From assembly GCA_965235115.1 (NCBI GenBank), contig OZ249436.1, positions 23,376,001 to 23,440,000 on the forward strand: a DNA stretch of 64,000 nt. Direction: 5' to 3'. The notes under the pieces are model-generated. The model made no database searches. It was not told the DNA's origin and saw nothing but the letters and a program-made list of their open reading frames with translations. The stretch comes from Laetmonice hystrix (taxonomy: Eukaryota). The position numbers were made by a program, and so were the translations under genes. The first letter of the stretch is position 1; each line of letters begins with the position of its first letter. Positions 15,446 to 59,989 of this stretch are shown here, one piece after another.

Positions 15446-15594
15446 TCCGAATGATTGTTTCGGTTATATAACGGAAGGTTCAAATGGGCTAATGATAACA
15501 AAACATCGCATTGTTGCCGCATATCAGAAATGTGCTCCGGCATTTGTTATAGAAATGGAAGCCAGAAAGAGAAAAAGAAAAGAAAAAGGAAGAA

Positions 15595-26359: not shown

Positions 26360-28752
26360 TGTCAGATGAAATAAGTACTCCCGTGAAATATCTACTCCCC
26401 CAGTACATATTTCATAATGAAAAATGTACTCCCCCTATGAAATCTGTACTCCCATCCTTCATCCCAAGAATAATTTATGTGATTCACTTCAAACGGACAA
26501 CAGACAACTGACAATGCTTATTTCTGTGCCTCAATAAGGTATTGGTGTATTCCAGTGATTGTTAGGTAATTTGCATCTTGCATCTGATTGGTTAAGGTTT
26601 TAGCCCCTAACGACAATGTTTTGGCCTATATCTCGAAAACGGTGTAAGATAGAGTATTAGTTACTATTATTCACACATAGGAAGTCATATATGACCTTTC
26701 ATTTGGCATGGGGTTCTTTGCCCTTGAGCGACCTTGAAAGGTCAGTCGAGGTCACACAAAATTGTCAATGGCCTGTATCTCCTAAACTCTTCAAGATAGC
26801 TACATACCCCCGGTAGTTACTATTAATGATGGATAGGAAGTCCTATATAAAGTTTCACTATTGTTATTGACCTTGACTGAACTTTAGGGGTCAATCAAAG
26901 TAATCCATCTTTCAAAAGGCCTACATCGCCAAAAGTCTCCTAGATAGTCACATAGTAACTATTACTGATGGATAGGAAGTCCTATATAATGTTTCACTAT
27001 TTTCATTGACCTTGATTGAACTTTAGGGGTCAGTTATGGTAATGCATCTTGCCAGAGGCCAAAAGTCTTCAAGGTAGCCACATAGTTACTGTTAATGATG
27101 GATAGGAAGTCCTATAATAAAGTTTCACTATTTTCATTGACCTTGACTGAACTTTAGGGGTCAACTAAGGTAATGCATCTTTCCAAAGGCCTATATCGCA
27201 AAAGGTATTAAAGATAGCCACATAGTTAATATTAATGATGGATAGGAAGTCATAAATAAAGTTTCATTCGAGACCATTTCCACTGACCTTGACTAACCTG
27301 CAAAGGTCAATCAAGGTCATGCATCTTTTTAAGGGGCTATCTCGCCAAAACTATTCAAGACAATGACAAAGTTACTCTTAATGATGGGCAGAAAGTCCTA
27401 TATACTTTCATTTTACGCTATTTTCAGTGACCTTGACTGGAGCTTGACCTTGACCTTGAAATAGGTCAATTAATCTCTACGGAAAAGGTACACCCAGTAC
27501 ATATTTCATATGAAAAAGGTACTCCCCCAGTAGATATACTCTATGGAAAGGGTACACCCGGTACATTTTTAATATGAAAATGATACCCCCACCTCAGTAC
27601 ATTGTATAGGCTCTATGGAAACGGTACACCCAATACATACTTCATATGACAAAGGTACTCTCCCAGTACATAGGCTCTATGGAAACGGTACACCCAGTAC
27701 ATTTTACATATGAAAAAGGTACTCCCCCAGTACATAGGCGCATTGAAAGGGCACCCCAGTACATATTTAATATGAAATAGGTACTCCCCCAGTACATAGG
27801 CTCTCTGGAAAGGGTACCCCCAGTACATATTTCATATGAAATAGGTACTCCCCCAGTACATAGGCTCTATGGAAACGGTACACCCAGTACCTATTTCATA
27901 TGAAAAAGGTACTCCCCCCAATGCATAGGCTCTCTGGATAGGGTTCCCCCAGTACATATTTCATATGAAAAAGGTACTCGCCCAGTACATAGGTGCATTG
28001 AAAGGGCACCCCCAGTACATATTTAATATGAAATACTATAGGTACTCCCCGAGTACATAGGCTCTCTGGATAGGGTACCCCCAGTACCTATTTCATATGA
28101 AAAAGGTACTCCCCCAGTACATAGGCTCTCTGGTTAGGGTACCCCCAGTACATATTTAATATGAAGTAGGTACTCCCCCAGTACATAGGCTCTCTGGATA
28201 GGGTACCCCCAGTACCTATTTCATATGAAAAAGGTACTCCCCAGTACATAGGCTCTCTGGTTAGGGTACCCCCAGTACATATTTAATATGAAATAGGTAC
28301 TCCCCCAGTACATAGGCTCTCTGGATAGGGTACCCCCAGTACATATTACATATGAAAAAGGTACTCCTCCAGTACATAGGCTCTATGGAAACGGTACACC
28401 CAGTACATATTTAATATGAAATAGGTACTCCCCCAGTACATAGGCCCGATGGATAGGGTACCCCCAGTACATATTTAATATGAAATAGGTACTCCCCCAG
28501 TACCCTAACCAGAGAGCCTATGTCCTAGGGGAGTACCTTTTTCATATGAAATATGTACTACTGGGGGAGTACATATTTCATAAGGGGAGTAACTTTTTCA
28601 TATGAAATATGTACTGGGGGAGTACATATTTCATATGAAATATGTACGGGGGAGTACATATTTCATATGAAATATGTACTGGGGAGTACATATTTCATAT
28701 GAAATATGTACTGGGGAGTACTTTCTCCACGCAGTACAAATTTAATATGACA
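26360..28752. mobile_element. Ginger1-like non-autonomous transposon filled with tandem arrays
   Basis: TGTCA...TGACA termini with CCGG on both sides (26356-26359, 28753-28756). Absent from the paralogous unit near 30635. Contains ~120-bp HINE cores (26600-27470) and a ~59-bp CCCCAGTACAT array (27478-28740) whose last part is inverted. Confidence 0.75.
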
Positions 28753-31700: not shown

Positions 31701-34700
31701 GAACAATTGACACGGATAGGCCTACGGGGCCTATCAAAAAGCGCCCTGCCAGCTCAGTGTCACACAAGGCCAATGGGTGTGAATGTCATCCACACCAGGC
31801 TTTTGACTCAGATTGAAACGAAGTGCAACTGACCAAAAGTTTAGCATGTCACCTTAATTCCACAGCCAACAATCAAAGTATTCGTTTATTCAGCTCTCCT
31901 CCCATGTAAGATTCAAAAACATATACATTAGACAGTTAGCCTACACCCCCAGTTCAAAAACCACAGTTAATTCAATTATGTCAGTTCTGAATACACATAT
32001 TCCTCCAACCCCCACCCTGACTGTGAGGCAAGGGGAAGTATCCAAAAACATGTATTAGACAGAACCTACAGTTTAGAGGCACAGCTAATTCAGTAATGTC
32101 AGTTTGGAATACACATAGGCTATTCCTCCAACCACATCCTGACCGGCGGCCGCGTCACAGTAGGAGATCTGGGCCGACCCGGACCTTATCAGCAGCAGTT
32201 ACGTAACGCTACCGCCCTCGGGTGGCTGTTCACAGCCGGTGGTCTTGTATACGCAGACAGCCGACCGTCCACAGTGATAAACATTTTATTGTGAAGACTA
32301 TACCGATTATAACTTATAATTCTGACCATATTACCTTTCCAAGAAAAGAACTAAACGATTAGTGGTATACCTGACTCTATACACTTTATAACTGTTATAT
32401 TTGTTGATGGCTATCATACACACGTTTCAAGATAGAGACTGTCTACGTCAGATTACATATTTCATCATAAATACAAAATTATTGGTCGATTTATGAAAAT
32501 AATTAGACAAAGCGACCAATCCTTTATAGATGCACACATCTAGTGACCAAATACATGATTCCTATCTCATTGAAGCAATTTGAGCAAAAAGTGACAAAAG
32601 TGACAAATTTTAAAGTCACGTGACTCTCTTAATATAGGTCAAATTCCTGACTTCAAACCGTTTCAATAAAGAGCCACCTTATGAGACTCTTCAGACACAC
32701 TTTGGCTACATATTGCAAAATATCTAGGGAAGAGATGCAATTTAAGCTGTTTAACATCTTTGACCTAGATCTCACAAAGGTCAAAGGTCAGAGGTCAAAT
32801 TTAGGTGCATGACGATTAATGCCTAAGTGCCTAATTAGGAACTATCATGGAGATTGCTCCTACTTTTTCAGAAATTCAAGAAATGAGCCCTCCTTTGAGC
32901 AACTTTAACACGTCATAAGTCATTGACGTGACGTCATATGACGTAATCAGTCAATAGTTGATCAGTTTAGGTCATGATCAATGTTCCCTGCAAATTTCAT
33001 CACGATACCTTCAGAGATAACCGAGATATGGCCATAGTCTAACCACGTGAATAATCATAAGAAGAAGAAGAAGAATAGTGTAGACGAAACCAAGTGATTT
33101 CAAAATCCCATTTCCCCCTTCGGGGGGAAATGGGATAATCAGAAGAAGAAGAAGAATAGTGTAGACGAAACCAAGTGATTTTAAAATCCCATTTCCCCCT
33201 TCGGGGGGGAAATGGGATAACTAGAAACTCTGATTGCCAAGCAATACAGGTAAGATCCCATTTCCCCAATGGTTTTCTATCATTACCTACATTTTACTTC
33301 CCTTTAATTTGACTGTTATTCAGCTCTCATTCAAAAACGTATGCATTAGACAGTTACACCTGCTGTTCAAAACCACAGCAAATTCAGTTATGTCAGTTCT
33401 GAATACACAGTCATATTCCTCCAACCCCACCCTGAGTGCAAGGGGAGGTAAGGGGGATTATTCACGACCGACGGGCTTACCGGCGGGCCCTAAGATAGTC
33501 TATCCACATCAATCTGCTGGCTCACTAAACCAAGGACAGCTGGCCAAGAGTTGTCTTGTAAATTCAAAAAGACAGCCTTCATCAGAGTTTTGTTTTATTG
33601 CTCTCCTTCAATATAAGATTCAAGAACATGTGTATTAGACAGTTACACTCTACAGCTCTAAAGCAGGGCTAATTCAGCTGGGTTTGTTCTGGACAGATTC
33701 CAACCCCACGCTGACTCGGAGGACCGGGGAGTCGACACCAGCGGCCCTTATCAGCACCAATTACATGTACATAACTCTCTGCCGGCCTGGCTCTCTGGCC
33801 AGGCGGACCTCGCAGCGGGCGATCTGTGTATACAGAGACCACAACCATCCTAGTGACAAACATTATATTGTGCAGACTATACCGATTAAAACTTGGAATT
33901 CTGGCCATATTACCTTTTCAAAAAGAGAACTAAACAGTCAGTGGTAACTTAAATCTATACACTTTGTAATTGTTGTATTTGCATATGGCTATCTTAAATA
34001 CGTTTCAAGGTAGAGCCTGTGAACGTCAGATTACATATTTCATCATAAATAAAAAAGTATTGGTAAATTTATAAAAAGAAATATGCAAAATGACCAATCT
34101 TTAATAGGAGCACACATATAGTGACCAAATATATGATTCTATGATAATTTATGCAAAAAATTATGCAAAGTGACCAATCTTTACTAGGAGCACACATCTA
34201 GTGACCAAATATATAATTCCTATCTCGTTGAAGCAATTTGAGCAAAAAGTGACAAAAGTGACAAATTTTAAAGTCACGTGACTCTCTTAATATAGGTCAA
34301 ATTCCTGACTTCAAACCGTTTCAATAAAGAGCCACCTTATGAGACTCTTCAGACACACTTTGGCTACATATTGCAAAATATCTAGGGAATATGCCTAAGT
34401 GCCTAATTAGGAACTATCATAGAGATTGCTCCTACTTTTCCAGATATTGAAGAAATGAGCCCTCATTTGAGGAAATTTAACAGGTCATTCGGGGGGGGGG
34501 GGAATGGGATAATCAGAAAAAGAAGAAGAAGAAGAAGAAGAAGAAGAAGAAGAATAGTGTAGACGAAACCGAGTGATTTCAAAATCCCATTTCCCCCTTC
34601 GGGGGGGGGGGGATAATCAGAAGAAGAAGAAGAAGAATAGTGTAGACGAAACCAAGTGATTTCAAAATCCCATTTCCCCCTTCGGGGGGATGGGATAATT

Positions 34701-36429: not shown

Positions 36430-38335
36430 CAGGGTCGTATAAACTCGCCTGACTGTAGTGATCAGGCCCCTATATACCCCTCATGAGTGTTGTGGTTAGG
36501 CCCTATATACCCCACATGACTGTATTTTTCTTTTGAAATGCACGGGCATCACGGGTAACCCAATTACTTTGACAATGTCCCTAAAGAGAAAAGTTGTATA
36601 GTCCTCTTCAGGAATCGAACCCCGGCCCCAAGATTACTTCACCCATTCGCATAGCATAAAGTGTCGACACCCATGCCCACTCGGCCACCGCAACTCCCCT
36701 AAAAAGGAGCTTTGGTGGTCGAGCAGGACAATGGACCTTCCCCCCTACACACATCTTCCGAAATGAGACGGAATCCATATTTTCCTAGATAGAGCTACAC
36801 ATGATTTCTACCGAACATTGACTGTTAAGGTAATCCTGGCACTGGCGTAGACTGTATTTTTCTTTTGAAATGCACGGGCATCACGGGTAACCCAATTACT
36901 TTGACAATGTCCCTAAAGAGAAAAGTTGTATAGTCCTCTACAGGAATCGAACCCCGGCCCCAAGATTACTGCACCCATTCGCATAGCATAAGGTGTCGAC
37001 ACCCATGCCCACTCGGCCACCGCCACTCCCCTAAAAAAGGAGCTTTGGTGGTCGAGCAGGACAATGGAATCAGGCGTAACCCAATTACTTTGACAATGTC
37101 CCTAAAGAGAAAGGTTGTATAGTCCTCTACAGGAATCGAACCCCGGCCCCAAGATTACTGCACCCATTCGCATAGCATAAGGTATCGACGCCGTGATTAG
37201 GTCCCTATATACCTCACGTGACTGTATTTTTCTTTTGAAATGCACGGGCATCAGGGGTAACCCAATTACTTTGACAATGTCCCTAAAGAGAAAAGTTGTA
37301 TAGTCCTCTACAGGAATCGAACCCAGGCCCTAAGATTACTGCACCCATTCGCATAGCATAAGGTGTCGACTGTAGTGATTAGGCCCCTATATATCCATCC
37401 TGACTGTAGTGGTTAGGAATCTATATAACTCGCCTGACTGTATTTTTCTTTTGAAATGCACGGGCATCAGGGGTAACCCAATTACTTTGACAATGTCCCT
37501 AAAGAGAAAAGTTGTATAGTCCTCTACAGGAATCGAACCCAGGCCCTAAGATTACTGCACCCATTCGCATAGCATAAGGTGTCGACATCCATGCCCACTA
37601 GGCAGTGATCAGGCCCCTATATACCCCTCATGAGTGTTGTGGTTAGGCCCTATATACGCCACCTGCCTGTATTTTTCTTTTTGAAATGCACGGGCATCAG
37701 GGGTAACCCAATTACTTTGACAATGTCCCTAAAGAGAAAAGTTGTATAGTCCTCTACAGGAATCGAACCCAGGCCCTAAGATTACTGCACCCATTCGCAT
37801 GTGATTAGGTCCCTATATACCCCGCCTGACTGTATTTTTCTTTTGAAATGCACGGGCATCAGGGGTAACCCAATTACTTTGACAATGTCCCTAAAGAGAA
37901 AAGTTGTATAGTCCTCTACAGGAATCGAACCCCGGCCCTAAGATTACTGCACCCATTCGCATAGCATAAGGTGTCGACATCCATGCCCACTAGGCCACCG
38001 CCACTCCCGTGATTAGGAACTTATATACCCCACCTGACTGTAGTGATTATGAACCTATATACGCCACCTTCCTGTGGTGATTAGGGCCCTGTATACCCCA
38101 GCTGACTGTAGTGATTAGGTCCCTCTATATAGCCTGACTGTAGTGGTTAGAAACCTATATAACCCACCTGCCCTGTATTTTTCTTTTGAAAATGCACGGG
38201 CATCAGGGGTAACCCAATTACTTTGACAATGTCCCTAAAGAGAAAAGTTGTATAGTCCTCTACAGGAATCGAACCCAGGCCCTAAGATTACTGCACCCAT
38301 TCGCATAGCATAAGGTGTCTGGAGTGATTAGGTGC
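36430..38335 (-). mobile_element. 34-bp minisatellite carrying eight copies of a tRNA-like (SINE-like) element
   Basis: Minisatellite unit ~GTGATTAGGCCCCTATATACCCCACCTGACTGTA. Eight GGAATCGAACC (minus-strand B box GGTTCGATTCC); A box TGGCCGAGTGG in the longer copies. Confidence 0.75.
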
Positions 38336-38727
38336 AACCTCTTCACTCTAGGCCTAATATCAAGCCACTCAGGCAGTGACTGACCATGGACTGACGTTAT
38401 ATAGGCCTATTTAAATAGGCCTATCCCATGGGGGTCCAGTGCCCTCTTTCGGAAAACAGATCACCACATCCTCAGCTGACCAATATGATTGCCCATCTCT
38501 AATACTTCAAAAAAAAAAGTTCTGGCTACGGGCCTGAATCCGTTGTATTTATGGGTCTAAAGCTGGCCACACATGCAGATAAGGGCATGTGAAAAGAAAG
38601 CTGTAACATGATCGTGTATGTGCGACTGTTTGCTCAAACAGGGCCTTGTAACACCTTCAGACCTCGACCCCGCTAGCCAATGTGCTGTTGTCTCAACCTG
38701 ATTGACAGGTCACACCTTGGCAACAAT

Positions 38728-44849: not shown

Positions 44850-45481
44850 GTCAGCATGATTGCCTGCAATCATTGATCCCATTTCCCTAAAATACATACA
44901 GACATCCTGTAAGCCTATAGGCTACATGAGGAAGATCGATATGGAGAGTGCATTTTGTTGTAGAACCATTATGTCAAATTTGACCAGGATAATTCGAAGA
45001 GATCTACTTCAAAATCGTACATTTATGTATTACTGAATCATCTCTTTTCTAGTATCTGAGAGACATTTGCCCTGTTGGTACTTGTTTAGTCACTGAAGAA
45101 CATTTTCATAAATTTAGGCCAAAATCCCACCTGCTATAAAAGCACAACTAATTTCCTAAAGATCTCTTGAAAACTCAATTGTTTTACTAACGATATAAAA
45201 TTGGAGTTTGACGTTTACAATACGAAAAATATCTGATAAAAATACCTTTCCTTAATGGGATTCGAAGCCATGATATCCAGCCTATGTGACGGCTATTTTA
45301 CCGAATCAGCTATAGAGACTCATAACTGAAGCGGTACTAAGGTCCTATCTATAATAGATGAATGACGTCACGACACGTAACAGTAATGTCACAGGAGAAA
45401 ATTGTCACAAATTTGGCTTATCCCACCCTCTTTAAGCAGGGCAAGTTTCATAAAGATTCTGTTCAAAACTGCAAGGGATAT
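44850..45481. repeat. Older host repeat into which both the LTR element and the Academ-like element inserted; continues at 58223-58452 and 63214-64000
   Basis: Shared motifs AAATTTGGCTTATC..CCACCCTCTTTAAGC and AAAACTGCAAG.GATATGACT. Paralogous empty sites near 63820 and 45275. Confidence 0.75.
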
Positions 45482-46634
45482 TATCGTCTGGCTGACGATT
45501 GAGTTGGGGAACTAACTCGTGAAGGGGAGGCTGAGAGGTATATTACGACACAAGCGGGGATAAGTTGTTAACGATTGTTTAATTAACAGTAGAATAAATG
45601 ATACACACCAATATGTAAACCGTCAACGTGCTAGTATACGTGTAAGAACCGTTTGCTTACCGGGTTGCCGAATAAGTCCTTGGCTTAGGTGTGGTCAACA
45701 CCATGTCTATAATCTGAGTGTCCAGTAAGGCTAAGGCGAGCCAGTACGAATGTATATATAAATGTGTGAAGGGTCCAAGATAGCTGGTTGTTCTCTGGTG
45801 CTTGTTGTTGCTCGTCTCTTGTTCTCTGGTGCCTGTCTTGTTGCCTTCTCTTGCTTTCTGTTGCTTTTCTGCTTGATCCAGAGTGGATGCAACTTATATA
45901 GGTTTAATTACGTCAGAATAGTTAATTTAGCGAAACGGATTGTCATTGGACCAGGAAGGTCACGAGGGGAAGCAACATGGCCGCGAACCTAAGGGAGTTT
46001 TAATTCCCCAAAGCCAGCGACGCCCTCATTAATTATTTATAGAAACTAAAGTTGAAGTATAATACTGTTTTCGTTGTATAAAAAGTTATATGTGCTATAT
46101 ACGAATAAATGAGTGAAAAATATGGAATCCTGAGAAGGCTACAAATCTTATGGTGTGCTTTACATACCGTAACTCATATTAATAAGCATATATACATATT
46201 GTTCACAACAATCGTCTTTAAACCTAGTACATGGACGTTACACCGTAAAAATATATATATCCTTTCCTGCAGAAACATGTAGGTCCTATAGATTCACAAT
46301 AATTAACTTGTTGACGGATAATTCAGAACTTATTAAACTTGTATATATAATTGCTGATGACAACTACAGGTGTTTGTTTCAACTAGCGTAACGGTATAGA
46401 AGAGTGACGGTATTGTACATATAAGAGGGTCAGACGTATATATAGATTAACAGCTAAGGTTATATGATAGTTTTGAGATATATATCGTAAGAGAACATCG
46501 ACGTTACATATATAATTAGGCTCACAGGAGCTTACAATCCAAAATGGCGTAGCCCACGTAAACCGGACCATCTGGTATACGTTCCGCCTTAAGGGCCTAC
46601 ACAAAGGGATGGCGCTATAAATATCGTGCCGATA
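45482..46634 (-). repeat. 3' LTR (1153 bp)
   Basis: Direct repeat of 57070-58222. TATCG...CGATA termini. Only two substitutions noticed by eye. Confidence 0.96.
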
Positions 46635-46648
46635 TCACCCCTGTTGTT
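46635..46648 (-). promoter_or_regulatory. Candidate polypurine tract
   Basis: Minus strand AACAACAGGGGTGA abuts the 3' LTR; short and imperfect. Confidence 0.45.
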
Positions 46649-47073
46649 GCAAAAGTTCGTCTCGAACTTAAAATCAAAGACGCCTAATTCATACTATGTT
46701 GATACAATTCGATACAAGTAATCGTCGCTACTACTAAAATACATAAGTGACATGAACGTAACTGGTTATTATTGCTTATATGCCGTGGCTATGGGTCCAT
46801 AGTTCGTAGCTGGCTTAAATTCAACATTGACATTTTGCAAAAATAACGCAGAAAATTAAAAATGTGTCCAATTTAGCAAATGGTCTAAAGACGTGAACAA
46901 ATACTATGATATCATGTGGTCGCGCAGGACCATTGCAAAACAAGTAATACAGTAATACAAGAAACATATAAAACGCTCAGTAAGAAATCCCAAATTAGGG
47001 GTCAATAGGTCCAACTTGTCATGTGCTTAAAATTGTACGTGGCATGTCGATTTGTGTGGCAATATAGGAAGCT

Positions 47074-49211
47074 CTAAGGCAAACCTGGGTACAAGTTACT
47101 AGAGGCGTCTTCGTCATTCATACACCCAGACACATAGAAGGATCTGTTTCCATGGTCTACTAGTAAATAGGCAGTGTATGCTGAAGCAAACAGTTTACGT
47201 ACACGATAGGCATTAATTGGATTTAATGGAATGACGTCTGGCATTGTCAGTGGTTCGCCAGATAGGCTGTTCTTAATGTGTATATCATTCCACGTGATCA
47301 TTAACTTTGGGCGTAATTTTCCCTGAAGACCCAAATGCTTGATCGCGCCATCGGCCTTAAATGAGTAATTCTTAGGATACATAGGTAAGGGCCTAATGGG
47401 TAGAATAATGCTTTGACTTGCACTCGTGAGTTCAAGACTAATTCGAAGGACTTGTTTGCGATAGCAGTGACGAATAAGGAGAAAGCCGATCAGAACGACT
47501 ATAAGGGAAAGCATGACTGCTTGGAGTGGTAGTGCTGGGGTGTGGCATGGGGGGTTGGTGGGGGTCGGGGTAGTGGTTAGTTGGGGTAGGAACGTCCAAA
47601 CCTGATTAGAGAGGGTAGCCTCGACAGGTTTAACAGTCAGAGCTGTTACCATAGAAAATAGAAGTTTAACGCGATATGCCATGTAACATGAGAGTAAAAG
47701 ACTCAGACAAGCTATGGCTGCGGAGATATATGCCACATACATCGAGGAAGATGAGGATATATTTGGGAGATCCTCCAAAAGAGGTTCTGAGAGAGACTCA
47801 AATGCTTTCTCGTTTCTCTGAGCGGCCTCCACCGCCTTTCGAAGGTTGAGGTCTGCGTTCGTCTCTGTAACCAGGGTTGACTTGTATTTATGTTTAAAGA
47901 GTGTAATGGGGGGTAAATTTCCATCAAATGGCAGTTGATGAAGGTCAGATGGTCTAAAACCTGACAACATGTGAAGTTCATAGCTGTGTAGCATCATAGC
48001 CATGTTAAAACCATGGGACAGTGAACTGTCTGTGCCATTATGACAGAAATCGAGACGTGGTGGAATATAGAAACCTTGTGCTGAAAAGGAGCACAGGCAT
48101 GGAAGTCGCATAACACAAAAGTGACAACCATGCTGTACCCTAGAGTATGATGTACACGTGAGCTGGAATCTGGTTATATTAGTTAGAAGTAAGGTTCCAT
48201 GGCCTAAATGTGCTACCGTCGGTTTAATGATGTTAGCCTTTAGCCTAAAATTACAAAGTTGTTTAATTTCGAATTTGTTATCAGTAAAGATAGCTGAAGC
48301 ACAGGATGGATTAGTAATTGCCACTAGTGGTTCATCCAAGTGCTCATTAAAGAGATAATAGGGGTGAGAAATAGACTGACCATTGAGACTGTGGAATTCA
48401 GCATAGTACATGCCATCCCTGCTAAGGGCAAAATAATTTGGAAGTCCGGACAGAAGCGAGGCATGTAGAGAAGTATAGTTAATTGGGACGGGGAAAGTAC
48501 TAATTTGGAAAAGGTCCAGTAAAACATGCGAAGTGATGAGTGGAAAGTGTACATTAACATATATAGAATTGTTATGATAAAGCCATGTAAATCTGAAGTA
48601 TTGATAGAATTGAGGCAAAGTGATGTCAGGGAGTCTGAACTGTGGATGGTGTTTGGCTAATGCACTAGCAATAACATTGCTGGCCTTGTGAAAACTAGCT
48701 GGTGGAATAAACATTTCTGAAATTGTGCCTTGTACCAGTGTTTGTACTGCAGTCCTTAGTTCTGCTGCAAAGAGCTTCAAATTAGCAGCCAGTTTAAGTT
48801 CTGTGGCGACTGTGCTTGTGAAATTTATGACTTCCTTGATTGTTTTGTGTATAGCTTGGGCATTTCGGATGACATCCATGATGGTGTCATGTTCGACTTC
48901 TATGGCCCGTTTAACATCATGAAATTTAGCATTAGAGTGTGTCATAAAGGACGATAACTCTTGATGGAAGGTCTGCATCATCGATTTAGCTCTAGTTTGC
49001 TGGCGAGCCATTTTGCGTGCATGTTTGACAAGGATTTGAAGATCGTGATCCGTGGCAAATCCAAATAAGGATTTTCCAACGTCGGCCACTAAAGGCAGAA
49101 TGCCGGCGGATCTGGGACTCCGACCATTGTAGTGTGGCGGATCCAAGTGGTGAGGTAGTAGATTCGGGATGGTATCCAGAACGGCATTGAACTGATCTGC
49201 CGCATCCTTCC
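47074..49211 (-). CDS. env: Envelope glycoprotein, 3' part (baculovirus-F/errantivirus-like fusion protein)
   Basis: RSPR cleavage motif followed by fusion-peptide-like SAGILPLVADVGKSLFGFAT, a heptad-like region, Cys-rich ectodomain, N-glycosylation sequons and two hydrophobic segments. The first ~18 aa of the 730-aa track ORF come from the MITE. Confidence 0.9.
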
Positions 49212-49214
49212 TAA

Positions 49215-50530
49215 AGCCCCAGTCCCACCAAAGCCGATTGTACGACGTTCTATGCCGTTCTATCAAGATCTGAAATTTAGTTTAAGTCGTGATGAATCGT
49301 GATAAAATCACGACAACCCGAAGAGCTAGCTACGAATCTATCATGTTCTATCCCGACATCGGCCCGACCTTCCCGACAGCGCAACGACTACAGCAACGTT
49401 CATTGCCGACCTATGCAGATTGAGCTTCGACCTATCAAGATCCCGGGCCGATGTATGGCGACCTATACCAAGATTGACAAACGATGTAGCAACGTCCTAT
49501 GCCGTGCCCCAGCCGAGCTACGACCTGTCCCGATGACACCAGGTCTAGATCAGGGCTAAAACCACAGTCCCACCAAAGCCGAATTAGCTACGACGTGTCA
49601 CGATCTGATAAATCGTGTAGAATCGGGAAAGGTCCTAACTCGGTCGTACAGTAGTCTTGATAGATCCTCATAGGTCGGGATAGGCCACGATTGCACCCCG
49701 ACAATTTTAAACTGTTCAAAACAATCGGCATTGGTCGGGAAAAAGCTCAAATCGGGGATATACCGTAGGTCAAACGTTGCTCAGTCGGGAATAGTCGGGG
49801 GACAATCGGGATAGTTCGTTGTTCAGTCCTGGTTGATCGTAGGACAATCGCCAGACATTTCCTAGATCTAGCCCTGAAGTCATCGGGACAGGTCGTATCT
49901 CGGCTGGGGCTCAGACGGCATAGAACGTTGCTACATCGTTGGTCAAACATCGGGTCGGGTTCTTGATAGAACGTAGCTCAATCTGCATAGGTCGGCAGAG
50001 AACGTTGCTAAGTTGTTTCTCGGTCGGGAAGGTCGGGGGATGTCGAGATAGAACATGATAGCACGCGGCGTGATCGTTGAGAGATCTTTGGAAAACCGTT
50101 GCCCAGTCGCCGTTGAACGTGACAATTCGTAGCTAGGTCTTCAGGTTGTCATTATTTCATCACGATTCATCACGACTTAAAATAAATTTTAGATCTTGAT
50201 AGAACGGCGTGGAACGTAGTACAATCGGCTTTGCTGGGACTGGGGATTAATTTTCTGGCAATTGTCCTACGATAAACCAGGACTGAACAACGAACTATCC
50301 CGATTGTTCCCCGACTATATTCCCGACTGAGCAACGTTTGACCTACGATATAGCCCCGATCTGAGCTTTTTCCCGACCAATGCCGATTGTTTTGAACAGT
50401 TCAAAATTGTCGCGACCTATGACGATCTATCAAGACTACTCTACGACCGAGTTAGGACCTTTCCCGATTCTACACGATTTATCAGATCGTGACACGTCGT
50501 AGCTAATTCGGCTTTGGTGGGACTGGGGCT
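49215..50530. mobile_element. PIF/Harbinger (Tourist-like) MITE inserted in env, TAA TSD
   Basis: Perfect 23-bp TIR AGCCCCAGTCCCACCAAAGCCGA. TAA at 49212-49214 and 50531-50533. Confidence 0.92.
49560..50247. mobile_element. Second copy of the same MITE family nested in inverse orientation, TAA TSD
   Basis: Degenerate TIRs AACCACAGTCCCACCAAAGCCGA / TCGGCTTTGCTGGGACTGGGGAT. TAA at 49557-49559 and 50248-50250. Confidence 0.88.
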
Positions 50531-50854
50531 TAATGGAATGTAGCAACCAATCTGCTGGCTTGTAGCCGTAACATTTAGACGTAGTGGACGTGTTGAAGCA
50601 GATTTGGCTTGGTATACTGACATGAAATGTCGAAGGCAGAAGAACTTGGAATGTGTGCTTCCATGTTGAGTGAATTGCGAGTCTTGATCCCAAAGATTTG
50701 TAAATGGTTCCATAGTTCAACAAGTATTTAGTTGAAGTTGTACCTCCAAGGCAAACGCTCACACAGCAGAAGAGGACCAACAGCCTCAGAAGCCCAACGC
50801 TGCGAGCTGGGTGAATGTCAGGCGACCGTGCCGACCCAATTGTAGTCGGCTCAT
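50531..50854 (-). CDS. env: Envelope glycoprotein, 5' part (signal peptide and N-terminal subunit)
   Basis: LLRLLVLFCCVSVCLG signal-like segment, then LNYGTIYK...WKHTFQVLLP. Joins the 3' part in frame (WLLHSI-R-KDAADQ) when the MITE is removed. No in-frame ATG upstream; preceded by a pyrimidine tract and CAG. Confidence 0.85.
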
Positions 50855-51155
50855 CTGTCAGACAACAAAGCAGAGACACGGGAAGAAAATGAGAAGGTGG
50901 CGATTGGTGAGGGAACCAGCCCTGTATGTGAATAATGGTAATGAAGTGATATAGAAGTGCATTATGACGTGTGTCTCAGCCATGCTTAACTTGAGATGGG
51001 TCACCCTAATACTACAACTCATTGGCAACAAGGGGAGTGGCTGAACCGCAATATTGAAATGTACTGCTTTGGGTTATAAGTACTCCTCTGCCGTGCAGGA
51101 ATGTCTCTTGATAGGAAGGTACTACTTTATGCCCGGCACTTTAGAACAACAAGGG

Positions 51156-54100
51156 TTAGACTGACTTGAATAATGTCTTGGGTTTCTTCTTTTTTTGTCG
51201 ACCAGAGTTGTTGTACCTTTCATGAAACTTAATTATCATTTCAGTTGGGATATCAGCGGGCCATAACCATGCTGGAGGTTTATTCTCCAACCTTACTTTA
51301 TATATTTTCTTGCCTTCCTTATATGAAGCTCGCAGAATTTTGATTGGCTTTGGTTTGGCATCCGTGTTTTGAGGAGCGCTTGCATCTTGTGATGGCTCAT
51401 TGACATGTTTAGACTGATCCGTGTCCTGAGCTGGTGACTGAGTTATAGAGTCAGCCGCTGTCTCGGCCTCTGGAGGAGTGTAATCCTCACAAGGTTCTGA
51501 AGACGACAGGTCAGATTTGACAAAGGGTTTCAATCTATTTGCATGCTGTCTTGTCGAAATTCTGGTGTGTGATCCAACGTCACGCAAGGAGTATGTGTTG
51601 TTGTCATGTATTTGGTCTATATAATATGGGCCTCGCCATGGTTTATGCAGCTTTTTGGAGAGCCCTATGGGAACTTTCTCACTTCTAAGCAGCACTGCTT
51701 GGTTTATTTTGAACGTGGGTGGGGCTGTTCCTTTATCATAGTGTTGCTTGTATTTGTGCTGATGTTCCAGTATGTTACTCTTTGCCATGTCATGGATCAT
51801 GCGAATTTTACCCAAAGTATTCGCCAAATACTCCTGAGTTGAGGGAGGAAGGCGATCCTTAGGTTGCAGTGTTCTATCAATTGGGAGACTCATGTCTTCA
51901 CCAAAGAGTAAATAGAATGGTGAGTAACCCGTCGATCTTGATGCTGGTGTGGCTCTGTAACTCATTAATATACCAGGGAGATATATAGGCCAGTCTGTTT
52001 GGTTATCATTAACAAATGAACGGAGCGCTTGACCAATGACACTGTTGAAGCGCTCACACGTCGCATTTGTCTGCGGGTGGTATGGTGATGTATGTACTCG
52101 GTTGACTTTGAAGAGTTGACAGAGTGATGCCACTAATGATGACAGGAACTGTTTACCTCTATCAGATACCAGAGTTTTAGGTGCCCCATATCGCGTAAAA
52201 ATCTCCTCATAGAGAACTTTTGCGACTGATGCTGCATTTGCATTTTCCAAAGGAAACGCTTCAGGCCACTTGGAAAAGCTGTCAACCAGCAATAGGATGT
52301 ATTTCTTTTTATCAGCGCTCTCATGTAATGGTCCCAGGAAATCGATGTGCCAGCGCTCAAACCTTCCCACGATTGGCATGGGTTGCAATGGGGCAGGCCT
52401 ACAATGGCGGTTAGCTTTAGCCGATTGACACGATGGACATCCTTCAACTAAATCCTTGACATGAGAATACATACCAGGCCAGAAGTATTTCTGTTTGATA
52501 GAGTCGTAGGTACGGTCAAATCCCTGATGTGCGCCGCCAAGGAGGTTATGATGGTAATGTTCCATGATGGTATGGCGCATGTCTCCGGAGGTTATTTTGT
52601 CTTCCTCTGGAATCACTAGACGTAGTTGTGTAATCTCGTTTCCAGCAGGGTCTTTGCCTAAATACAACTTGTGATGCAGTAAGCCATCCTTTAGTACATA
52701 CCTAGACAGTGAGCGCTGAGTGTAGCCTGATGGCTTATCTGTCTTAGACTTAGTGACTAGATAGTTAAATATCTTCCCCATCTTGCCCAACTTTTGGAGC
52801 TCTTTTATATCAAGGTCTGCAGAAATTTCTAGGACAGACTCCTCTTGACCTGTGACGTCTGCAGTGATATCTATGGCTGCCAAAGTGGGTAGAGGGTTAG
52901 TTTGTGATGGAGACCGTGAGGTGTCTACTGTTGCCATGAGTGGCACTTCTGGCTCAGGTTGGACAGCATTCTCAGTAGTTGTCTCTGTTTGACACGCTAC
53001 TGAACGGGGCACGTCTTGTGGTAAGTCACGTGTGGGATCATCTGTTCTAGACAGAACGTCTGCATTGATATTTTCTGCACCTTTTCTGTATGTAATATGA
53101 TAATCCCAGCCTGCGAGTTCAAGTGCCCACCTGCTTAACCGTCCAGTGCCGCCTTCTTTGGCTTTAATATAGGCCAGAGCTTTGTGGTCTGTGACCACCT
53201 CAAACGTGGATCCTATAAGGTATGATCTGTATTCCCTGATGCCGTCGATCACAGCCAAACCTTCACGCTCAGTGATAGAGTAAGCTTTCTCTTCACGCCT
53301 GAGAGATCGACCTCCATATGCTAAAACACGCTCATCGCCATGTATGTCTCGCTGTGAGAGAATATAGCCTATGCCCGTGCCACTTGCGTCACATGTCAGG
53401 GTGTACTTTTTTGTAGGATCTGGGAACTGAAGCATAACAGGCCCTGTTAGTCTGTCTTTTAAAGCCTGGAAGGAACTCTCACATTCCTCCGTCCAGTTGA
53501 ATTTCATACCTTTAACAAGCAAGCCATTGAGGGGTGCACGAAGAGAGCCAAAGTCCTTAATGAACCGCCTGTAGTAGTTGCAAAGACCTAGAAATTTGCG
53601 GACTTGCCTGGGTGTTGATGGCCTGCAGAAGTCTTTAACGATTTGGACTTTGTCGGGGTTAGGCCGGATGCCATCTTTAGAAATAATATGGCCTAGGTAT
53701 TTAATGGAATCGAGGCCAAATTTGCACTTTTTGGGGTTTAAAGTGAGACCTGCATTTTCAATTCGGTTCAATACGCGGTCTAGTTCTCCGAGATGTGCGT
53801 CAAACCCTGTCGAGTGGACGCATACGTCATCGACATACGAGAAGGCACAGTCACGTAGAGTGTCACCAAGGGTTTCGGTCATTAATTTCTGAAATGCAGC
53901 CGGGGCATTGGACAAACCGAAGGGCATTTTGTTACATTCATACTGATGGTCTTGTAGGACAAAACCAGTTTTGTGTTTTGTTGCTGGGTCTAGTTTTACT
54001 TGCCAGAATCCCGAATTTAGGTCCAGCTGGCTGAATAGACAGCTTTCCTTTTGTCCGATGGCGTCCCAGACGTCCTCGACTCTGGCAAGGGGGTAGGAAA

Positions 54101-55631
54101 TTTTCTTTGTAATTTGATTAAGTTTCCGGAAATCTATCGCGAATCTATATGTATTGTCTTTTTTTCTGACCATAACCACAGGAGAGCGCCACATTGAAGT
54201 TGAAGGCTCTATTATGTTATACTTCAGAAGTGTGTCAATTTGTTTTTCAATTTCTTCCTTGATAATGGGGTTAACACGGTAGTAACGCTGTGAAGCTGGG
54301 GGTGCGTCTCCGGTGTCAATAACGTGAGGTGCCACTTTGGCTGTACCCAATTCACTAATATCTGCTGCAAACGCTTTACGATGGCTTTGCAGAAATTGTA
54401 AGAGTATTTCTTTCTCTTCAGGTGGCAAATTGGACTCAGACAGATCAAAAGTGATATCTGCTGCTTCAGACTGTTCTGACTGAATGGGGACATCTGTCAT
54501 GCCACGATAATCAAGCCCAGAAAGGTCGCCATCAAAGGCGTCATCACTGTTAAAGAGGACTTGGGCCTTTTGTAAAGTAGTGGCCAGACCTATGGTGTGA
54601 GATTTCTTTATTGTGATTGTAGTATCAGAATGGTTGACCAAGGTACACTTAGTATATTTGCCTTTTGGGCAGTCAATACTGGGTGGGACGACCAGATCTG
54701 GGAACTGATCCTCCAAACTATGTACTGGTTCCATGAAAAGTAAACCATGATGGGGTTTTGTGAGAACCAATTGTACAGTGCACTCTGAAGTAGGTGGAAT
54801 GGAAACCTTCTGTGCGGTTCTGGCTAGAGTGCGTCGTTTGGTTGGCCCACGCAAGGGGACAGATGGGCCATCCTTAAAGGTTAGCATACCACTTGCGAAA
54901 TTTACATCTATATTGTTGTCTTTTAAAAAATCAAGACCCAGGATGAGTGAGTGGTGACCTTCTAGCACATGAAAATTTTGCATCAATGTGTGTCCTTCAA
55001 TGTTGAGTGTCAGTATGACCCTACCAAAAACATTGTGGGTTTCACCACCAACTCCTACAACAGCATCAAACCGTGGTTCGAGCGTTTGCGTTTGAACGGG
55101 CAAATTTTGTAAGAAGTTGTGTGAAATACAAGACACTTTGGCACCAGAATCTACCAACGCAAGTGTAGACTTGTTTCCAATGTGCACGCTAATCATATTG
55201 GTATAATCATCATCAAGGGAAACTGTGACATGCATAATGGAGTGTTCCTGGGAGGTTGTTTGTGAGGGAGGGGGAGATATGGGTGATTGAACTATATGGG
55301 ATTCAGCCTGGCTTGCCGGTGGCGAAGGTGTATGGTCGACTTGACGTGTTGTTTTGTCACTGCAAACAATGCCTTGGCTGGCGCCAGCCATATGTGTCTG
55401 GTGAGGTAGAGTATAGCTGTCAGCATCCTTGTGATTGTTGCTGGGTGGGGAGGCTGTTTGGGGTGGAGGTGTTAATTGAGGGGGGGTGGACCTGAATACT
55501 TTTGAGGTACAGGTATGTGTGGGCTGTGTTGTGGGAGGGTAGGTGCTAGGTGGTTGGGACAAAACCTGGGGGAATGCCACTTGTTGGTTTTGTACTGAAT
55601 TACATGTACAAGATGTCTTTGCCAGCATCAT
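51156..55631 (-). CDS. pol: Pol polyprotein: protease, RT, RNase H, integrase, degenerate chromo-like tail (1491 aa, uninterrupted)
   Basis: LVDSGA (protease); MPFGL and YVDD (RT); LTCDAS..GIG (RNase H); HHCC zinc motif, DFLGP, SDRG and ERFN (integrase); GPY motif. Confidence 0.97.
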   Translation of the reverse strand: MMLAKTSCTCNSVQNQQVAFPQVLSQPPSTYPPTTQPTHTCTSKVFRSTPPQLTPPPQTASPPSNNHKDADSYTLPHQTHMAGASQGIVCSDKTTRQVDHTPSPPASQAESHIVQSPISPPPSQTTSQEHSIMHVTVSLDDDYTNMISVHIGNKSTLALVDSGAKVSCISHNFLQNLPVQTQTLEPRFDAVVGVGGETHNVFGRVILTLNIEGHTLMQNFHVLEGHHSLILGLDFLKDNNIDVNFASGMLTFKDGPSVPLRGPTKRRTLARTAQKVSIPPTSECTVQLVLTKPHHGLLFMEPVHSLEDQFPDLVVPPSIDCPKGKYTKCTLVNHSDTTITIKKSHTIGLATTLQKAQVLFNSDDAFDGDLSGLDYRGMTDVPIQSEQSEAADITFDLSESNLPPEEKEILLQFLQSHRKAFAADISELGTAKVAPHVIDTGDAPPASQRYYRVNPIIKEEIEKQIDTLLKYNIIEPSTSMWRSPVVMVRKKDNTYRFAIDFRKLNQITKKISYPLARVEDVWDAIGQKESCLFSQLDLNSGFWQVKLDPATKHKTGFVLQDHQYECNKMPFGLSNAPAAFQKLMTETLGDTLRDCAFSYVDDVCVHSTGFDAHLGELDRVLNRIENAGLTLNPKKCKFGLDSIKYLGHIISKDGIRPNPDKVQIVKDFCRPSTPRQVRKFLGLCNYYRRFIKDFGSLRAPLNGLLVKGMKFNWTEECESSFQALKDRLTGPVMLQFPDPTKKYTLTCDASGTGIGYILSQRDIHGDERVLAYGGRSLRREEKAYSITEREGLAVIDGIREYRSYLIGSTFEVVTDHKALAYIKAKEGGTGRLSRWALELAGWDYHITYRKGAENINADVLSRTDDPTRDLPQDVPRSVACQTETTTENAVQPEPEVPLMATVDTSRSPSQTNPLPTLAAIDITADVTGQEESVLEISADLDIKELQKLGKMGKIFNYLVTKSKTDKPSGYTQRSLSRYVLKDGLLHHKLYLGKDPAGNEITQLRLVIPEEDKITSGDMRHTIMEHYHHNLLGGAHQGFDRTYDSIKQKYFWPGMYSHVKDLVEGCPSCQSAKANRHCRPAPLQPMPIVGRFERWHIDFLGPLHESADKKKYILLLVDSFSKWPEAFPLENANAASVAKVLYEEIFTRYGAPKTLVSDRGKQFLSSLVASLCQLFKVNRVHTSPYHPQTNATCERFNSVIGQALRSFVNDNQTDWPIYLPGILMSYRATPASRSTGYSPFYLLFGEDMSLPIDRTLQPKDRLPPSTQEYLANTLGKIRMIHDMAKSNILEHQHKYKQHYDKGTAPPTFKINQAVLLRSEKVPIGLSKKLHKPWRGPYYIDQIHDNNTYSLRDVGSHTRISTRQHANRLKPFVKSDLSSSEPCEDYTPPEAETAADSITQSPAQDTDQSKHVNEPSQDASAPQNTDAKPKPIKILRASYKEGKKIYKVRLENKPPAWLWPADIPTEMIIKFHERYNNSGRQKKKKPKTLFKSV

Positions 55632-55685
55632 GTTGCGTATTGGTGACCTGTTCAGATGGACCCGTTTCTGAACTGGTGAGCAACA

Positions 55686-57011
55686 TCAGTGGTCGTAGTG
55701 GGGGAGGGAGGTATGTTGGTGGGGGGCTGGGAGGGTGGGGTTAGGGTGTGTACAGGTGGCGCACTGCATTAGGGGCTCTGCATAGTTAACATATCCCACT
55801 CTCTTATTATTCCCAAATCCATTGCCGGACCTATACTGCCGATTATTGTGTTGTGGCGCCACAGGTGGCAAACCACGGCGCTTACGCCCGCAAACATTCT
55901 CTAAGTGATCTTTTATACCACAGTACCGACATATTTTGCCACTAGCACGACAGTTGGACCTACCTTGACAAGTACTGCTGCCACAGTAGTTACAGGTCCG
56001 TTGTGAGCCGAACGGCGGTGCTGACCGTCCGTTTCTGCCAGTTGATGGAGAGCGGTGGCGTTCTGGCCCAGAGTCTGTGGTGGCACTAAGGCGACCCCGG
56101 TTGACCTCTGTGTTGAGGGTGGTTGTCAGCCTGTCCATCGCATCGGACAGTTGTAGGATGGCCTTGTGTCCCGCATCCAACTTGACGTCCACCGCCGACA
56201 CTGCTGCCGTTGTCGTCTGCCCTGCTGCGTTGGCTCCTCCAAACAAGATGCTTTGCATCGTTTGTAGTGTTGATGGTGCTGGATGGAGTCGTCCGTCCAT
56301 GGCTGACACGCTGGTTTGCGCGCCGGGAGTCGGTAGCATAGGTGTTGGGGCGGTGCTGAATGTTGCTGCAGCCTCATAGAGTTCCAGCAGCGACTTTGGC
56401 GCATGCAGCATCACGAGATTTCGCACCTCAGGCCGTAACCCGCTGCATATGGGTCTGACCAGCTGAGCTTCTGACACCTCCGGACAGTACCCTGCTGCCA
56501 ATTGCATCTTGTCTATATATGTTGTTAATGCCTCACCAGGCAGCTGGTGGCGACAGGCCAACGCCCGTTCACCAAGGAGAGCGTCCTCCGCCGATGGACA
56601 GAACCGTTTTCCAAATTCCGTCTTTAACGCATCCCACTTGGCACCATCTGACGCATACTCAGTATCCTTTCTAATAAAGTCTCGGTACCAAGACTTTGCC
56701 ACACTTGAGAGGGAGAGTGGGAGGAGGTTTATTTTCTCCTCTGCTGTGCACTTATAGTGCTTGGCGTACTGCTCAAAGTCCTCTATAAACGATTTTCCCT
56801 CCTTATTTTGAAACCCATCAAACTCCGCCCGGAATGGTGGGCAGGCGTTGTGTGCCATGCAGGTGGGTGAGGCTGCACGCTGATTTTGAGGCGCGTTGTT
56901 TGAGCCGTTCCCCACTTGTCCTTGTAAGACTGGTTTTCTGGACCTAGTAGCGTGAGCTGGACACGCCGTATCGGGTCTATTGCTATTAATTGGTGTGGTG
57001 AATATTGGCAT
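55686..57011 (-). CDS. gag: Gag protein (441 aa from the first ATG)
   Basis: Retrotransposon capsid-like region (FEQYAK...AKSWY...WDALKTEF...Q.PGE) and tandem zinc knuckles CNYCGSSTC...C / CRYCGIKDHLENVC. The track's GTG start at 57068 lies at the PBS and is unlikely. Confidence 0.92.
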   Translation of the reverse strand: MPIFTTPINSNRPDTACPAHATRSRKPVLQGQVGNGSNNAPQNQRAASPTCMAHNACPPFRAEFDGFQNKEGKSFIEDFEQYAKHYKCTAEEKINLLPLSLSSVAKSWYRDFIRKDTEYASDGAKWDALKTEFGKRFCPSAEDALLGERALACRHQLPGEALTTYIDKMQLAAGYCPEVSEAQLVRPICSGLRPEVRNLVMLHAPKSLLELYEAAATFSTAPTPMLPTPGAQTSVSAMDGRLHPAPSTLQTMQSILFGGANAAGQTTTAAVSAVDVKLDAGHKAILQLSDAMDRLTTTLNTEVNRGRLSATTDSGPERHRSPSTGRNGRSAPPFGSQRTCNYCGSSTCQGRSNCRASGKICRYCGIKDHLENVCGRKRRGLPPVAPQHNNRQYRSGNGFGNNKRVGYVNYAEPLMQCATCTHPNPTLPAPHQHTSLPHYDH

Positions 57012-57049
57012 GAAATTTAGATTGAAGGGGGGGAATTCCGAAACCGCGA

Positions 57050-57067
57050 CTCGGGTTCTTTCCACCA
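57050..57067 (-). promoter_or_regulatory. Candidate primer-binding site
   Basis: TGGTGGAAAGAACCCGAG starts 2 nt after the 5' LTR. TGG matches tRNA CCA; TGGTGGA resembles a tRNA-Ala end over only 7 nt. Confidence 0.55.
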
Positions 57068-57069
57068 CT

Positions 57070-58222
57070 TATCGTCTGGCTGACGATTGAGTTGGGGAAC
57101 TAACTCGTGAAGGGGAGGCTGAGAGGTATATTACGACACAAGCGGGGATAAGTTGTTAACGATTGTTTAATTAACAGTAGAATAAATGATACACACCAAT
57201 ATGTAAACCGTCAACGTGCTAGTATACGTGTAAGAACCGTTTGCTTACCGGGTTGCCGAATAAGTCCTTGGCTTAGGTGTGGTCAACACCATGTCTATAA
57301 TCTGAGTGTCCAGTAAGGCTAAGGCGAGCCAGTACGAATGTATATATAAATGTGTGAAGGGTCCAAGATAGCTGGTTGTTCTCTGGTGCTTGTTGTTGCT
57401 CGTCTCTTGTTCTCTGGTGCCTGTCTTGTTGCCTTCTCTTGCTTTCTGTTGCTTTTCTGCTTGATCCAGAATGGATGCAACTTATATAGGTTTAATTACG
57501 TCAGAATAGTTAATTTAGCGAAACGGATTGTCATTGGACCAGGAAGGTCACGAGGGGAAGCAACATGGCCGCGAACCTAAGGGAGTTTTAATTCCCCAAA
57601 GCCAGCGACGCCCTCATTAATTATTTATAGAAACTAAAGTTGAAGTATAATACTGTTTTCGTTGTATAAAAAGTTATATGTGCTATATACGAATAAATGA
57701 GTGAAAAATATGGAATCCTGAGAAGGCTACAAATCTTATGGTGTGCTTTACATACCGTAACTCATATTAATAAGCATATATACATATTGTTCACAACAAT
57801 CGTCTTTAAACCTAGTACATGGACGTTACACCGTAAAAATATATATATCCTTTCCTGCAGAAACATGTAGGTCCTATAGATTCACAATAATTAACTTGTT
57901 GACGGATAATTCAGAACTTATTAAACTTGTATATATAATTGCTGATGACAACTACAGGTGTTTGTTTCAACTAGCGTAACGGTATAGAAGAGTGACGGTA
58001 TTGTACATATAAGAGAGTCAGACGTATATATAGATTAACAGCTAAGGTTATATGATAGTTTTGAGATATATATCGTAAGAGAACATCGACGTTACATATA
58101 TAATTAGGCTCACAGGAGCTTACAATCCAAAATGGCGTAGCCCACGTAAACCGGACCATCTGGTATACGTTCCGCCTTAAGGGCCTACACAAAGGGATGG
58201 CGCTATAAATATCGTGCCGATA
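57070..58222 (-). repeat. 5' LTR (1153 bp)
   Basis: Direct repeat of 45482-46634. Candidate minus-strand TATA box TATATAAG at 57481-57488. Confidence 0.96.
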
Positions 58223-59989
58223 ATATGACTAATTTCTGGTATACATGTAATGGCCATATGACTGATTTCTGGTATAATGGCCATAAAACCCATCTTTTAG
58301 GTCATATATGACTGACCATCAAATTAAAAAAGATAATATAGCTTAATAGTTTTTTCAATAATATCAAAATTTGCATTTTAATGTTTAGAATATGAAAAAT
58401 TCCAGATAAAAATATTTTCTTTTGTAGGATTCGAACCAGTAATATACAGCTTTAGTCTAGTAGCCAGATAGGTGAACCCAGAAATGTTGAGTACCCTAAG
58501 GTATTTTGATGGAAATGTGATCTATGATGTGTGGGGACTCGGAAACCGTCGCATGCTAATTTGTATATGTTGGGCAATTAGTGTAATTAGCCTAATTAGC
58601 CTGAAAAAGGAATCTATCATAGATTCCCTATAAATCGACTTTGAGTCACATTTTTGGTGTCTAAATTTATGTTTTCGGTAGCAAGGAATTCATTAAACAT
58701 ATTTCTAGACCCATTTGTTAATTATTTGAAAGCCTAATTAGCATAATTAATATAAAATTGATAAAACAAATGGTAAAGTCTATGTAAATGGACGTGGAAC
58801 TTATATCTGGGTTCTTAAAACTGTGGTTCTGGCCTAAATGAAATTGTGAAACATTGTTTCAAGCTCATGTACAAAGTTATCACAAGCGAAATTAGCATAA
58901 TTTTGGATAGTATTAGTGTAATTAGCCTAATAAGCATCAACCTACTGATTGCCCGAAAAAAGAATCAATCATAAATTCCCTATAAATCGACTTTGAGTCC
59001 CATTTTTGATGTCTAAACCTATGTTTTCGGTCGCAAGGAATTCATTAAACATATTTCTAGAATGATTTGCTAATTATTTGCATGCTTAATTAGCAAATTG
59101 ATTACATAATGGTAAAGTCTGTGTAAATGCACTTGGAACTTCTATCTGGGTGCTTAAAACTGTGTTTCCAGCTTTTTTGTTGAACATGGCTTCGAGCTCA
59201 TGTACAAATTTACTACAAGCAAAATTAGCATAATTTTGGATAGTATTAGTGTAATTAGCCTAATTAGCATAGGGCTACTGAGCGCCCAAAAAGGAATTTA
59301 TCATAGATTCCCTATAAATCAACTTAGAATCACAATTTTAAAGTCCAAATCTATGTTTTCAACCCCAATGATTTGATTAAACGTATCTTCAGACTCATTT
59401 GTATATTATTTGCATGCTTAATTAGCATAATTAACATAAAATTGATAAAACAAGTAATAAAGTCTATGTAAATGCATTTGGAATTTTTATCAGGGTGCTT
59501 AAAACTGTGTTTCCGGCCTAAATGAATCCGTTGAACATGGTTTCGAGCTCATGTAAAAAGTTACTACAAGAAAAATTTGCATAATTTTGGATAGTATTAG
59601 TGTAATTAAGCTAATTAGCATAGGCCTACTGATTGCCTGAAAAAGGAATATACCATAAATTCCCTATAAATCAACTTAGAATCACAATTTTTGTGTCTAA
59701 ATCTATGTTTTCGACCCCAAGGATTTAATTAAACGTATCTTCAGACTCATTTGTATATTATTTGCATGCCTAATTAGCACAATTAACATAAGATTGATAA
59801 AACAAATAATAAAGTCTATGTAAATGCACTTGGAGCTTTTATCTGGGTATTTAAAACTGCGTTTCAGGCCTAAATTAGCATAATTTTTGATTCCAATGTT
59901 TTCAGACATGATAGACCTATATATGCTCACTTCAAAGCCTAACTTCAAACAACTACTCATTCACCATCCTCCTTATCGGTTATCCCTCT

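Follow-up and report, generated by a model that had tools for sequence, protein, structure and literature searches.

A predicted matrix-like domain and late-domain-type motifs at the end of Env in a Ty3/gypsy element of Laetmonice hystrix

Introduction

As Chary and Hayashi report (eLife 2026, PMC13524379), gypsy elements with an env gene occur across most animal phyla, annelids and molluscs included. The table of that study holds 70 polychaete entries, and among 30 rows listed 29 are F-type and 1 is gB-type. These 'ancient errantiviruses' have the gene order gag-pol-env, long terminal repeats (LTRs) with a primer-binding site (PBS), an ectodomain of the F type that carries a furin site and a fusion peptide, a low copy number and lophotrochozoan relatives. 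The same features are found in the element described here, a 12,741-bp Ty3/gypsy element with an F-type env in the genome of Laetmonice hystrix. On the minus strand it runs from 58222 to 45482 of a 64,000-nucleotide stretch of contig OZ249436.1 (assembly GCA_965235115.1, positions 23,376,001 to 23,440,000). This whole stretch is called the window, and all coordinates refer to it. The genes and signals of the element are all on the minus strand.

In PMC13524379 Env was analysed as an ectodomain only, cut at the transmembrane region, and the origin of errantivirus env and the way these elements are transmitted outside Drosophila were left open. The words 'matrix', 'cytoplasmic', 'readthrough' and 'splice' are absent from its main text, and 'matrix', 'late domain', 'cytoplasmic' and 'readthrough' from its seven text supplements; in these parts no description of a second membrane protein, of late domains or of a readthrough junction was found. 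The Drosophila elements gypsy, ZAM and Idefix resemble our element, for which a spliced env RNA is predicted, in having a spliced Env-F RNA with its first exon upstream of or within gag, and an Env with signal peptide, furin site, fusion peptide and anchor (PMC12992720). In contrast to our element, their Env is described there as having a single transmembrane domain, followed by a cytoplasmic tail, and the sections consulted mention neither a second helix nor a matrix-like domain.

The C-terminal part of Env

The 3' piece of env (47077..49212) encodes 712 amino acids. Behind its fusogen part, hydropathy indicated the membrane anchor TM1 (47677..47742), which is followed by a basic pair and a hydrophobic, signal-peptide-like segment ending in small residues (47617..47667), a putative internal cleavage signal. 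In an alignment of 97 rows, two columns of this segment had K/R in 89/97 and 81/97 rows, and its mean hydropathy was 1.4. A second membrane helix, TM2, with basic residues behind it (47467..47529) leads to a conserved beta-rich domain (47134..47448) with a predicted fold like that of Mononegavirales matrix proteins, and Env ends with a LYPxL late-domain-type motif (47080..47094).

Matrix proteins of four virus families made up 6 of the 7 top fold matches of the C-terminal domain. The best of these predicted-fold matches, to Borna M, paramyxo- and pneumovirus M and filovirus VP40, extended over the whole domain. An independent structure library (BFVD) returned bornavirus M and glycoproteins of chu-like viruses (Jingchuvirales); the latter were the top matches, the position of the match inside them not being given. 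By their names, we take them to be chiefly from Aliusviridae. [quoted passage not shown] Unlike our element, these are RNA viruses and not retroelements; a layout of F plus matrix may be common to both. Sequence searches with the domain gave no match in Pfam, in PDB sequences, in longer proteins or in viral contigs, and the ESM Atlas gave low-value matches only, mostly RCC1-like by their features and unnamed by structure. As a match in fold this is a modest one, and we lean slightly towards homology of the predicted domain with the Mononegavirales matrix. Since it sits in the last part of Env, joined to the membrane helix in front of it, and is not the soluble product of its own gene, we call it matrix-like and do not class it as a Mononegavirales matrix.

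[quoted passage not shown] In the floppy tail past the C-terminal domain, LYPxL was present in 21/97 rows (mean 0.1 and maximum 2 in 300 shuffles) and P[TS]AP in 9/97 (0.24 in shuffles), in proteins with a median identity of 24%. The two motifs sometimes stand side by side, and 63 of the 97 tails had none. The outer linker contained neither motif in any of the 97 rows. With this enrichment the tails have late-domain motifs, as expected of matrix proteins. The Gag of our element lacks an N-terminal glycine and any late-domain motif; YPx(1-3)L, P[TS]AP and PPxY were found neither in Gag nor in Pol.

The domain was present in four env genes of one genome record (L114-L117) and absent from two more distant F-type env genes of the same source (L118 and L119), and thus marks a sub-clade. 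The second helix, the C-terminal domain and the motifs are conserved, as is the gag-pol stop described below. The element type is known, and its C-terminal matrix-like feature is family-wide and not special to this copy. No report that gypsy Env or the glycoproteins of chu-like viruses bear such a matrix-like domain was found in a literature search that covered few subscription papers and included parts of 10.1101/2022.06.22.497255, 10.1101/2024.09.25.615016, 10.1101/2024.12.15.628590, 10.1101/2024.11.25.625296, PMC11122063 and PMC11952523.

The domain could also be cytosolic and yet not a matrix, namely an unrelated beta-rich adaptor, with YPxL as a tyrosine-based trafficking signal that sorts Env and with budding driven otherwise. 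We consider this unlikely, since matrix proteins dominate the top fold matches, the independent library returned bornavirus M and the chu-like glycoproteins, and the strict LYPxL and P[TS]AP motifs are both enriched and sometimes adjacent. Less probable still is that the hydrophobic segment in the middle fails to span the membrane and that the domain past TM2 is extracellular, as an accessory attachment or receptor-binding subunit: sequons that are not depleted, a co-occurring cysteine pair and a middle segment that is short and only moderately hydrophobic fit this topology and weigh against a cytosolic domain, but a mean of 2.4 K/R in the 6 positions past TM2, the net basic charge of the domain and the cytosolic-type motifs conserved in the tail argue against it.

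On balance, we favour an Env that would be a polyprotein supplying both a fusogen and a membrane-tethered matrix. The full-length RNA would be translated into Gag and, by occasional readthrough of a UGA, into Gag-Pol, and a spliced RNA into Env, as in the Drosophila errantiviruses. Its front part would be a class I fusogen that is cleaved by furin and held by a single anchor. At the internal signal, signal peptidase would free a second small membrane protein, predicted to have an outer part that is short and T/P-rich, a membrane helix and, in the cytosol, a matrix-fold domain ending with YPxL or P[TS]AP. This tethered matrix would line the inner face of the membrane, gather fusogen and capsid and recruit ALIX or TSG101, and the particle would pinch off. 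That it performs the budding job for which Gag has no motifs seems to us more likely than not. With such an Env product, the wrapping and release of a gypsy capsid without retroviral budding motifs would have an explanation that can be tested.

More tentatively, and with somewhat less conviction, we propose that an invertebrate gypsy clade carries a fusogen-plus-matrix cassette common with negative-strand RNA viruses. Its matrix would be a true Mononegavirales-type domain with its own helix and ESCRT late domains, cut from Env and budding in place of Gag, and chu-like viruses would have this domain, too, as a matrix so far unannotated and concealed within their long glycoproteins. The cassette would then tie the origin of env to negative-strand RNA viruses and not to baculoviruses. 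The C-terminal domain provides a second character, beside the fusogen, for tracing this origin, and suggests where a matrix may lie in the Jingchuvirales, for which no matrix gene is annotated (PMC10770922).

Synthesis of Env and its fusogen part

The 5' piece of env (50535..50855) encodes a hydrophobic signal-like stretch and has a putative pyrimidine-rich splice acceptor ending at 50855. No in-frame ATG was found in env, so Env is very probably made from a spliced RNA. Candidate donors at 55963 and 56536 match this acceptor in phase, and a donor in the LTR at 57248 matches another, weaker acceptor (50800); by chance alone, any one of these fits would arise in one case out of three.

In the 3' piece an RxxR furin-type site is followed by a fusion-peptide-like stretch (49039..49122), the motif names following PMC13524379 in part. 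The piece matched Baculo_F of Pfam with an E of 9.8e-7, above the cut-off. Its AlphaFold model, computed with the 97-row alignment, had a pLDDT (predicted local distance difference test) of 81.6, and the top Foldseek rows were foamy virus Env and the F proteins of human metapneumovirus, respiratory syncytial virus and measles virus (E 4e-4 to 8e-4). The model thus shows a class I fusogen fold for the front of Env. An earlier reading of the DNA from the sequence alone (the sequence-only reading) had called the env F-like, which agrees with these matches; it did not mention the matrix-like domain or the late-domain-type tail.

With E allowed up to 0.001, the relatives of the 3' piece numbered 1,558, counted as representatives at 50% identity, the best with about 30% identity. 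Named relatives of pol and env were from the bivalves Mytilus and Pinctada, in line with the non-insect host proposed by the same reading. Env relatives were found at none of 79 loci of a metagenome scan, from which only L001 and L003 were used, for the tree and the junctions described below. The scans of viral contigs gave no env relatives and two distant pol loci, which were not used. One genome record (G001; L080-L111 and L114-L119), filed as a bacterial metagenome-assembled genome, gave 176 matches to a gypsy pol profile and 6 to the env profile, and its contigs look like host-animal DNA.

The gag-pol junction

The gag gene (55689..57011, 441 amino acids) encodes a capsid and a zinc-knuckle region and matched Pfam Retrotrans_gag (E 2.3e-10) and Ty3_capsid (E 2e-4). 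The pol frame (51159..55685) is free of stops over 1,509 codons and encodes a P/S/T/Q-rich linker, protease, reverse transcriptase (RT), RNase H, as well as integrase (RVT_1 7e-31, RT_RNaseH 8e-30, Integrase_H2C2 3e-18, rve 3e-13, gag-asp_proteas 4e-8). The two genes are in one frame across a single UGA (55686..55688). A possible stimulator of readthrough, a stem-loop (55646..55677), begins 8 nt past the UGA, with z-scores of -1.9 over 50 nt, -0.3 over 70 nt and -2.0 over 100 nt. In murine leukaemia virus (MLV) the spacer is 8 nt. A -1 frameshift was ruled out by the shared frame and by the lack of a slippery heptamer near the stop, and an AUG overlapping the UGA opens a short frame only and not pol. 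Drosophila errantiviruses make Gag-Pol by frameshifting.

Sibling copies were available as three contig sets (X1, X2 and X3), all from one sample, which may be the one behind this assembly. Two contigs span the UGA, contig 6 in X1, with 11 differences, and contig 20 in X3, with 10; the list of their differences is complete and has none at the stop, and for X2 the list gives 11 of 14. The siblings share the stop. Within the low-complexity linker past the UGA, the 185 bp from 55334 to 55518 hold 6 of the 11 differences found against one sibling contig over 5.3 kb.

Junctions were then scored at 32 loci of one genome record rich in animal retroelements. Four elements, L081 (identical to L093), L082, L083 and L084, had a gag with a zinc knuckle whose frame continues into pol past one stop, at a pol identity of 35-38%. 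Among the remaining junctions, 13 distinct, more distant elements (28-31%) overlapped in another frame, 4 were like a single open reading frame and 9 could not be scored. L081 has a second stop within gag. For RT-RNase H, a quick tree was made from 46 rows, namely the window, 27 loci and, chosen by hand from 120 listed pol matches, 18 more; it was supported by SH-aLRT (Shimodaira-Hasegawa-like approximate likelihood ratio test) only. It placed our element and the four stop-type elements in one clade with a support of 100, which also contains three frameshifters on a long branch. In this tree, which contained no insect or published reference elements, the grouping was with bivalve and unnamed elements. 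On one contig (L087 and L117), a frameshifted gag-pol on a long branch is paired with an env that has the same C-terminal domain; junction type and env type can therefore be uncoupled.

The stop context was UAG-GGG in L081 and L084, and in both a stem stands some 8 nt downstream; its z-scores were -3.8 to -4.1 in L081, and -1.9 over 50 nt and -4.0 over 100 nt in L084. L082 and L083 had UGA-C without a stem, and our element has UGA-U with a weak stem at +8. Ribosomes read through in-frame gag-pol stops in fungal gypsy elements, and a single in-frame stop as found here is present in the readthrough elements Tj1, Tosmo1-3, Tcry1 and Tca2 and in MLV (10.1101/2022.12.06.519325). The fission-yeast elements have a fixed GAA-TGA-CT (same source), whereas here the stop varies between UGA-U, UGA-C and UAG-G, with or without a downstream stem.

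With an in-frame stop conserved at the junction, the UGA is probably a programmed readthrough stop and not damage. The chief alternative is that the UGA is not read through and that pol starts at an AUG of its own (a Met-Met lies 19 codons downstream), either through reinitiation or, like the pol of foamy viruses, on a spliced RNA. The UGA might also be a lesion spread by a master copy that is complemented in trans. P0278, a cluster member of a 66%-identical relative, starts with a similar Met-x-Leu-Ala-Lys stretch, the start being set by the gene caller, and AG acceptors lie just past the UGA; these points, together with a UGA context that is not a known leaky one, count against readthrough. 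Gag and pol were in frame across a single stop in 4/4 nearest relatives (two UGA-C, two UAG-GGG), strong downstream stems are found in L081 and less clearly in L084, and pol is otherwise free of lesions, which makes a separate start or a lesion doubtful. The sequence-only reading had described three genes open but for one UGA and one miniature transposon. The open pol was confirmed. Counting the UGA as decay is probably wrong, since the siblings and the four closest relatives with a visible junction have an in-frame stop.

LTRs, age and sibling copies

The 5' LTR (57070..58222) and the 3' LTR (45482..46634) are both 1,153 bp long and aligned at an offset of 11,588 with zero indels. They differ at exactly two positions, 45883/57471 and 46428/58016, as the sequence-only reading had spotted, which is 0.17%. 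Such likeness cannot be chance. If the rate is taken to be 2e-9 to 1e-8 per site and year, the insertion is about 0.1-0.4 million years old, with a wide error from two events only. The LTRs have TA...TA ends with a 5-bp inverted repeat, not TG...CA, and the 5' LTR has a TATA-like box near 57346-57348. The usual TG stands at the start of the relative L081. The target-site duplication ATAT (4 bp) stands at 45478..45481 and 58223..58226; the span of 45478..58226 given previously is right for the locus and includes these duplications.

The PBS (57050..57067) starts with TGG 2 nt inside the 5' LTR. It may match an Ala-like tRNA 3' end. An exact match to it is absent from the PBS table of PMC13524379. 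A putative polypurine tract precedes the 3' LTR (46635..46650). The paired LTRs, target-site duplication, PBS, polypurine tract, the order protease-RT-RNase H-integrase and a gypsy-type capsid place the element in Ty3/gypsy (Metaviridae), and the third reading frame after pol, which encodes an F-type fusogen and is interrupted in this copy, makes it an errantivirus in the operational sense.

Env of this copy is broken by a miniature inverted-repeat transposable element (MITE) of 1,316 bp (49215..50530), which has terminal inverted repeats, a 3-bp TAA/TTA duplication, no coding capacity and a high copy number. Presumably it is PIF/Harbinger-like. Its depth in the contig sets was 25,000-58,000 in the central bins, compared with about 100-230 across the internal genes of the element, depth not being copy number. 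The MITE has an interleaved a-b-a'-b' foldback layout and two extra copies like its terminal inverted repeats (near 49560 and 50225), resembling a composite of two related foldback units. LTR contigs had about twice the depth of the internal genes in X1 and X3, and a junction contig had a depth of 69 in X3; this pattern hints at a few full-length copies. Long sibling contigs differ by about 0.2% from this copy. A joint that skips the MITE was present in all three runs, so the MITE insertion is not common to all copies. Empty-site contigs exist; as the insertion site sits in a high-copy host repeat and the runs all come from one sample, they do not demonstrate polymorphism.

The element is a recently inserted env-bearing Ty3/gypsy, probably of the 'ancient errantivirus' type, whose env was later hit by the MITE. 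Its young age had been recognised previously, and the two LTR differences and the close siblings bear this out. LTR identity, near-identical siblings and the class I fold would also suit the view that the locus is notable chiefly for an env-bearing lineage, recently active and perhaps infectious, whose host is not an insect. This we regard as improbable, as such elements have been published as widespread, with the polychaete entries among them (PMC13524379), and as env is interrupted in this copy. The youth of the copy and its non-insect host are ordinary, and the earlier claim of novelty fails because env-bearing gypsy elements outside insects were already catalogued.

Other features of the window

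Zero matches to Rfam families were obtained across the window. A 315-codon frame (4454-5401), without a Pfam match, looks like a decayed piece of a retroelement gag or pol, and other reverse transcriptase fragments at 10489-11127, 14447-15463 and 17632-18228 appear to be of the long interspersed nuclear element type. Much of the window is taken up by minisatellite and larger tandem arrays (27475-28561, 28805-34488, 36501-38366 and 58599-59875), with units of 64 bp, about 1.3-1.6 kb, about 200 bp and 352 bp.

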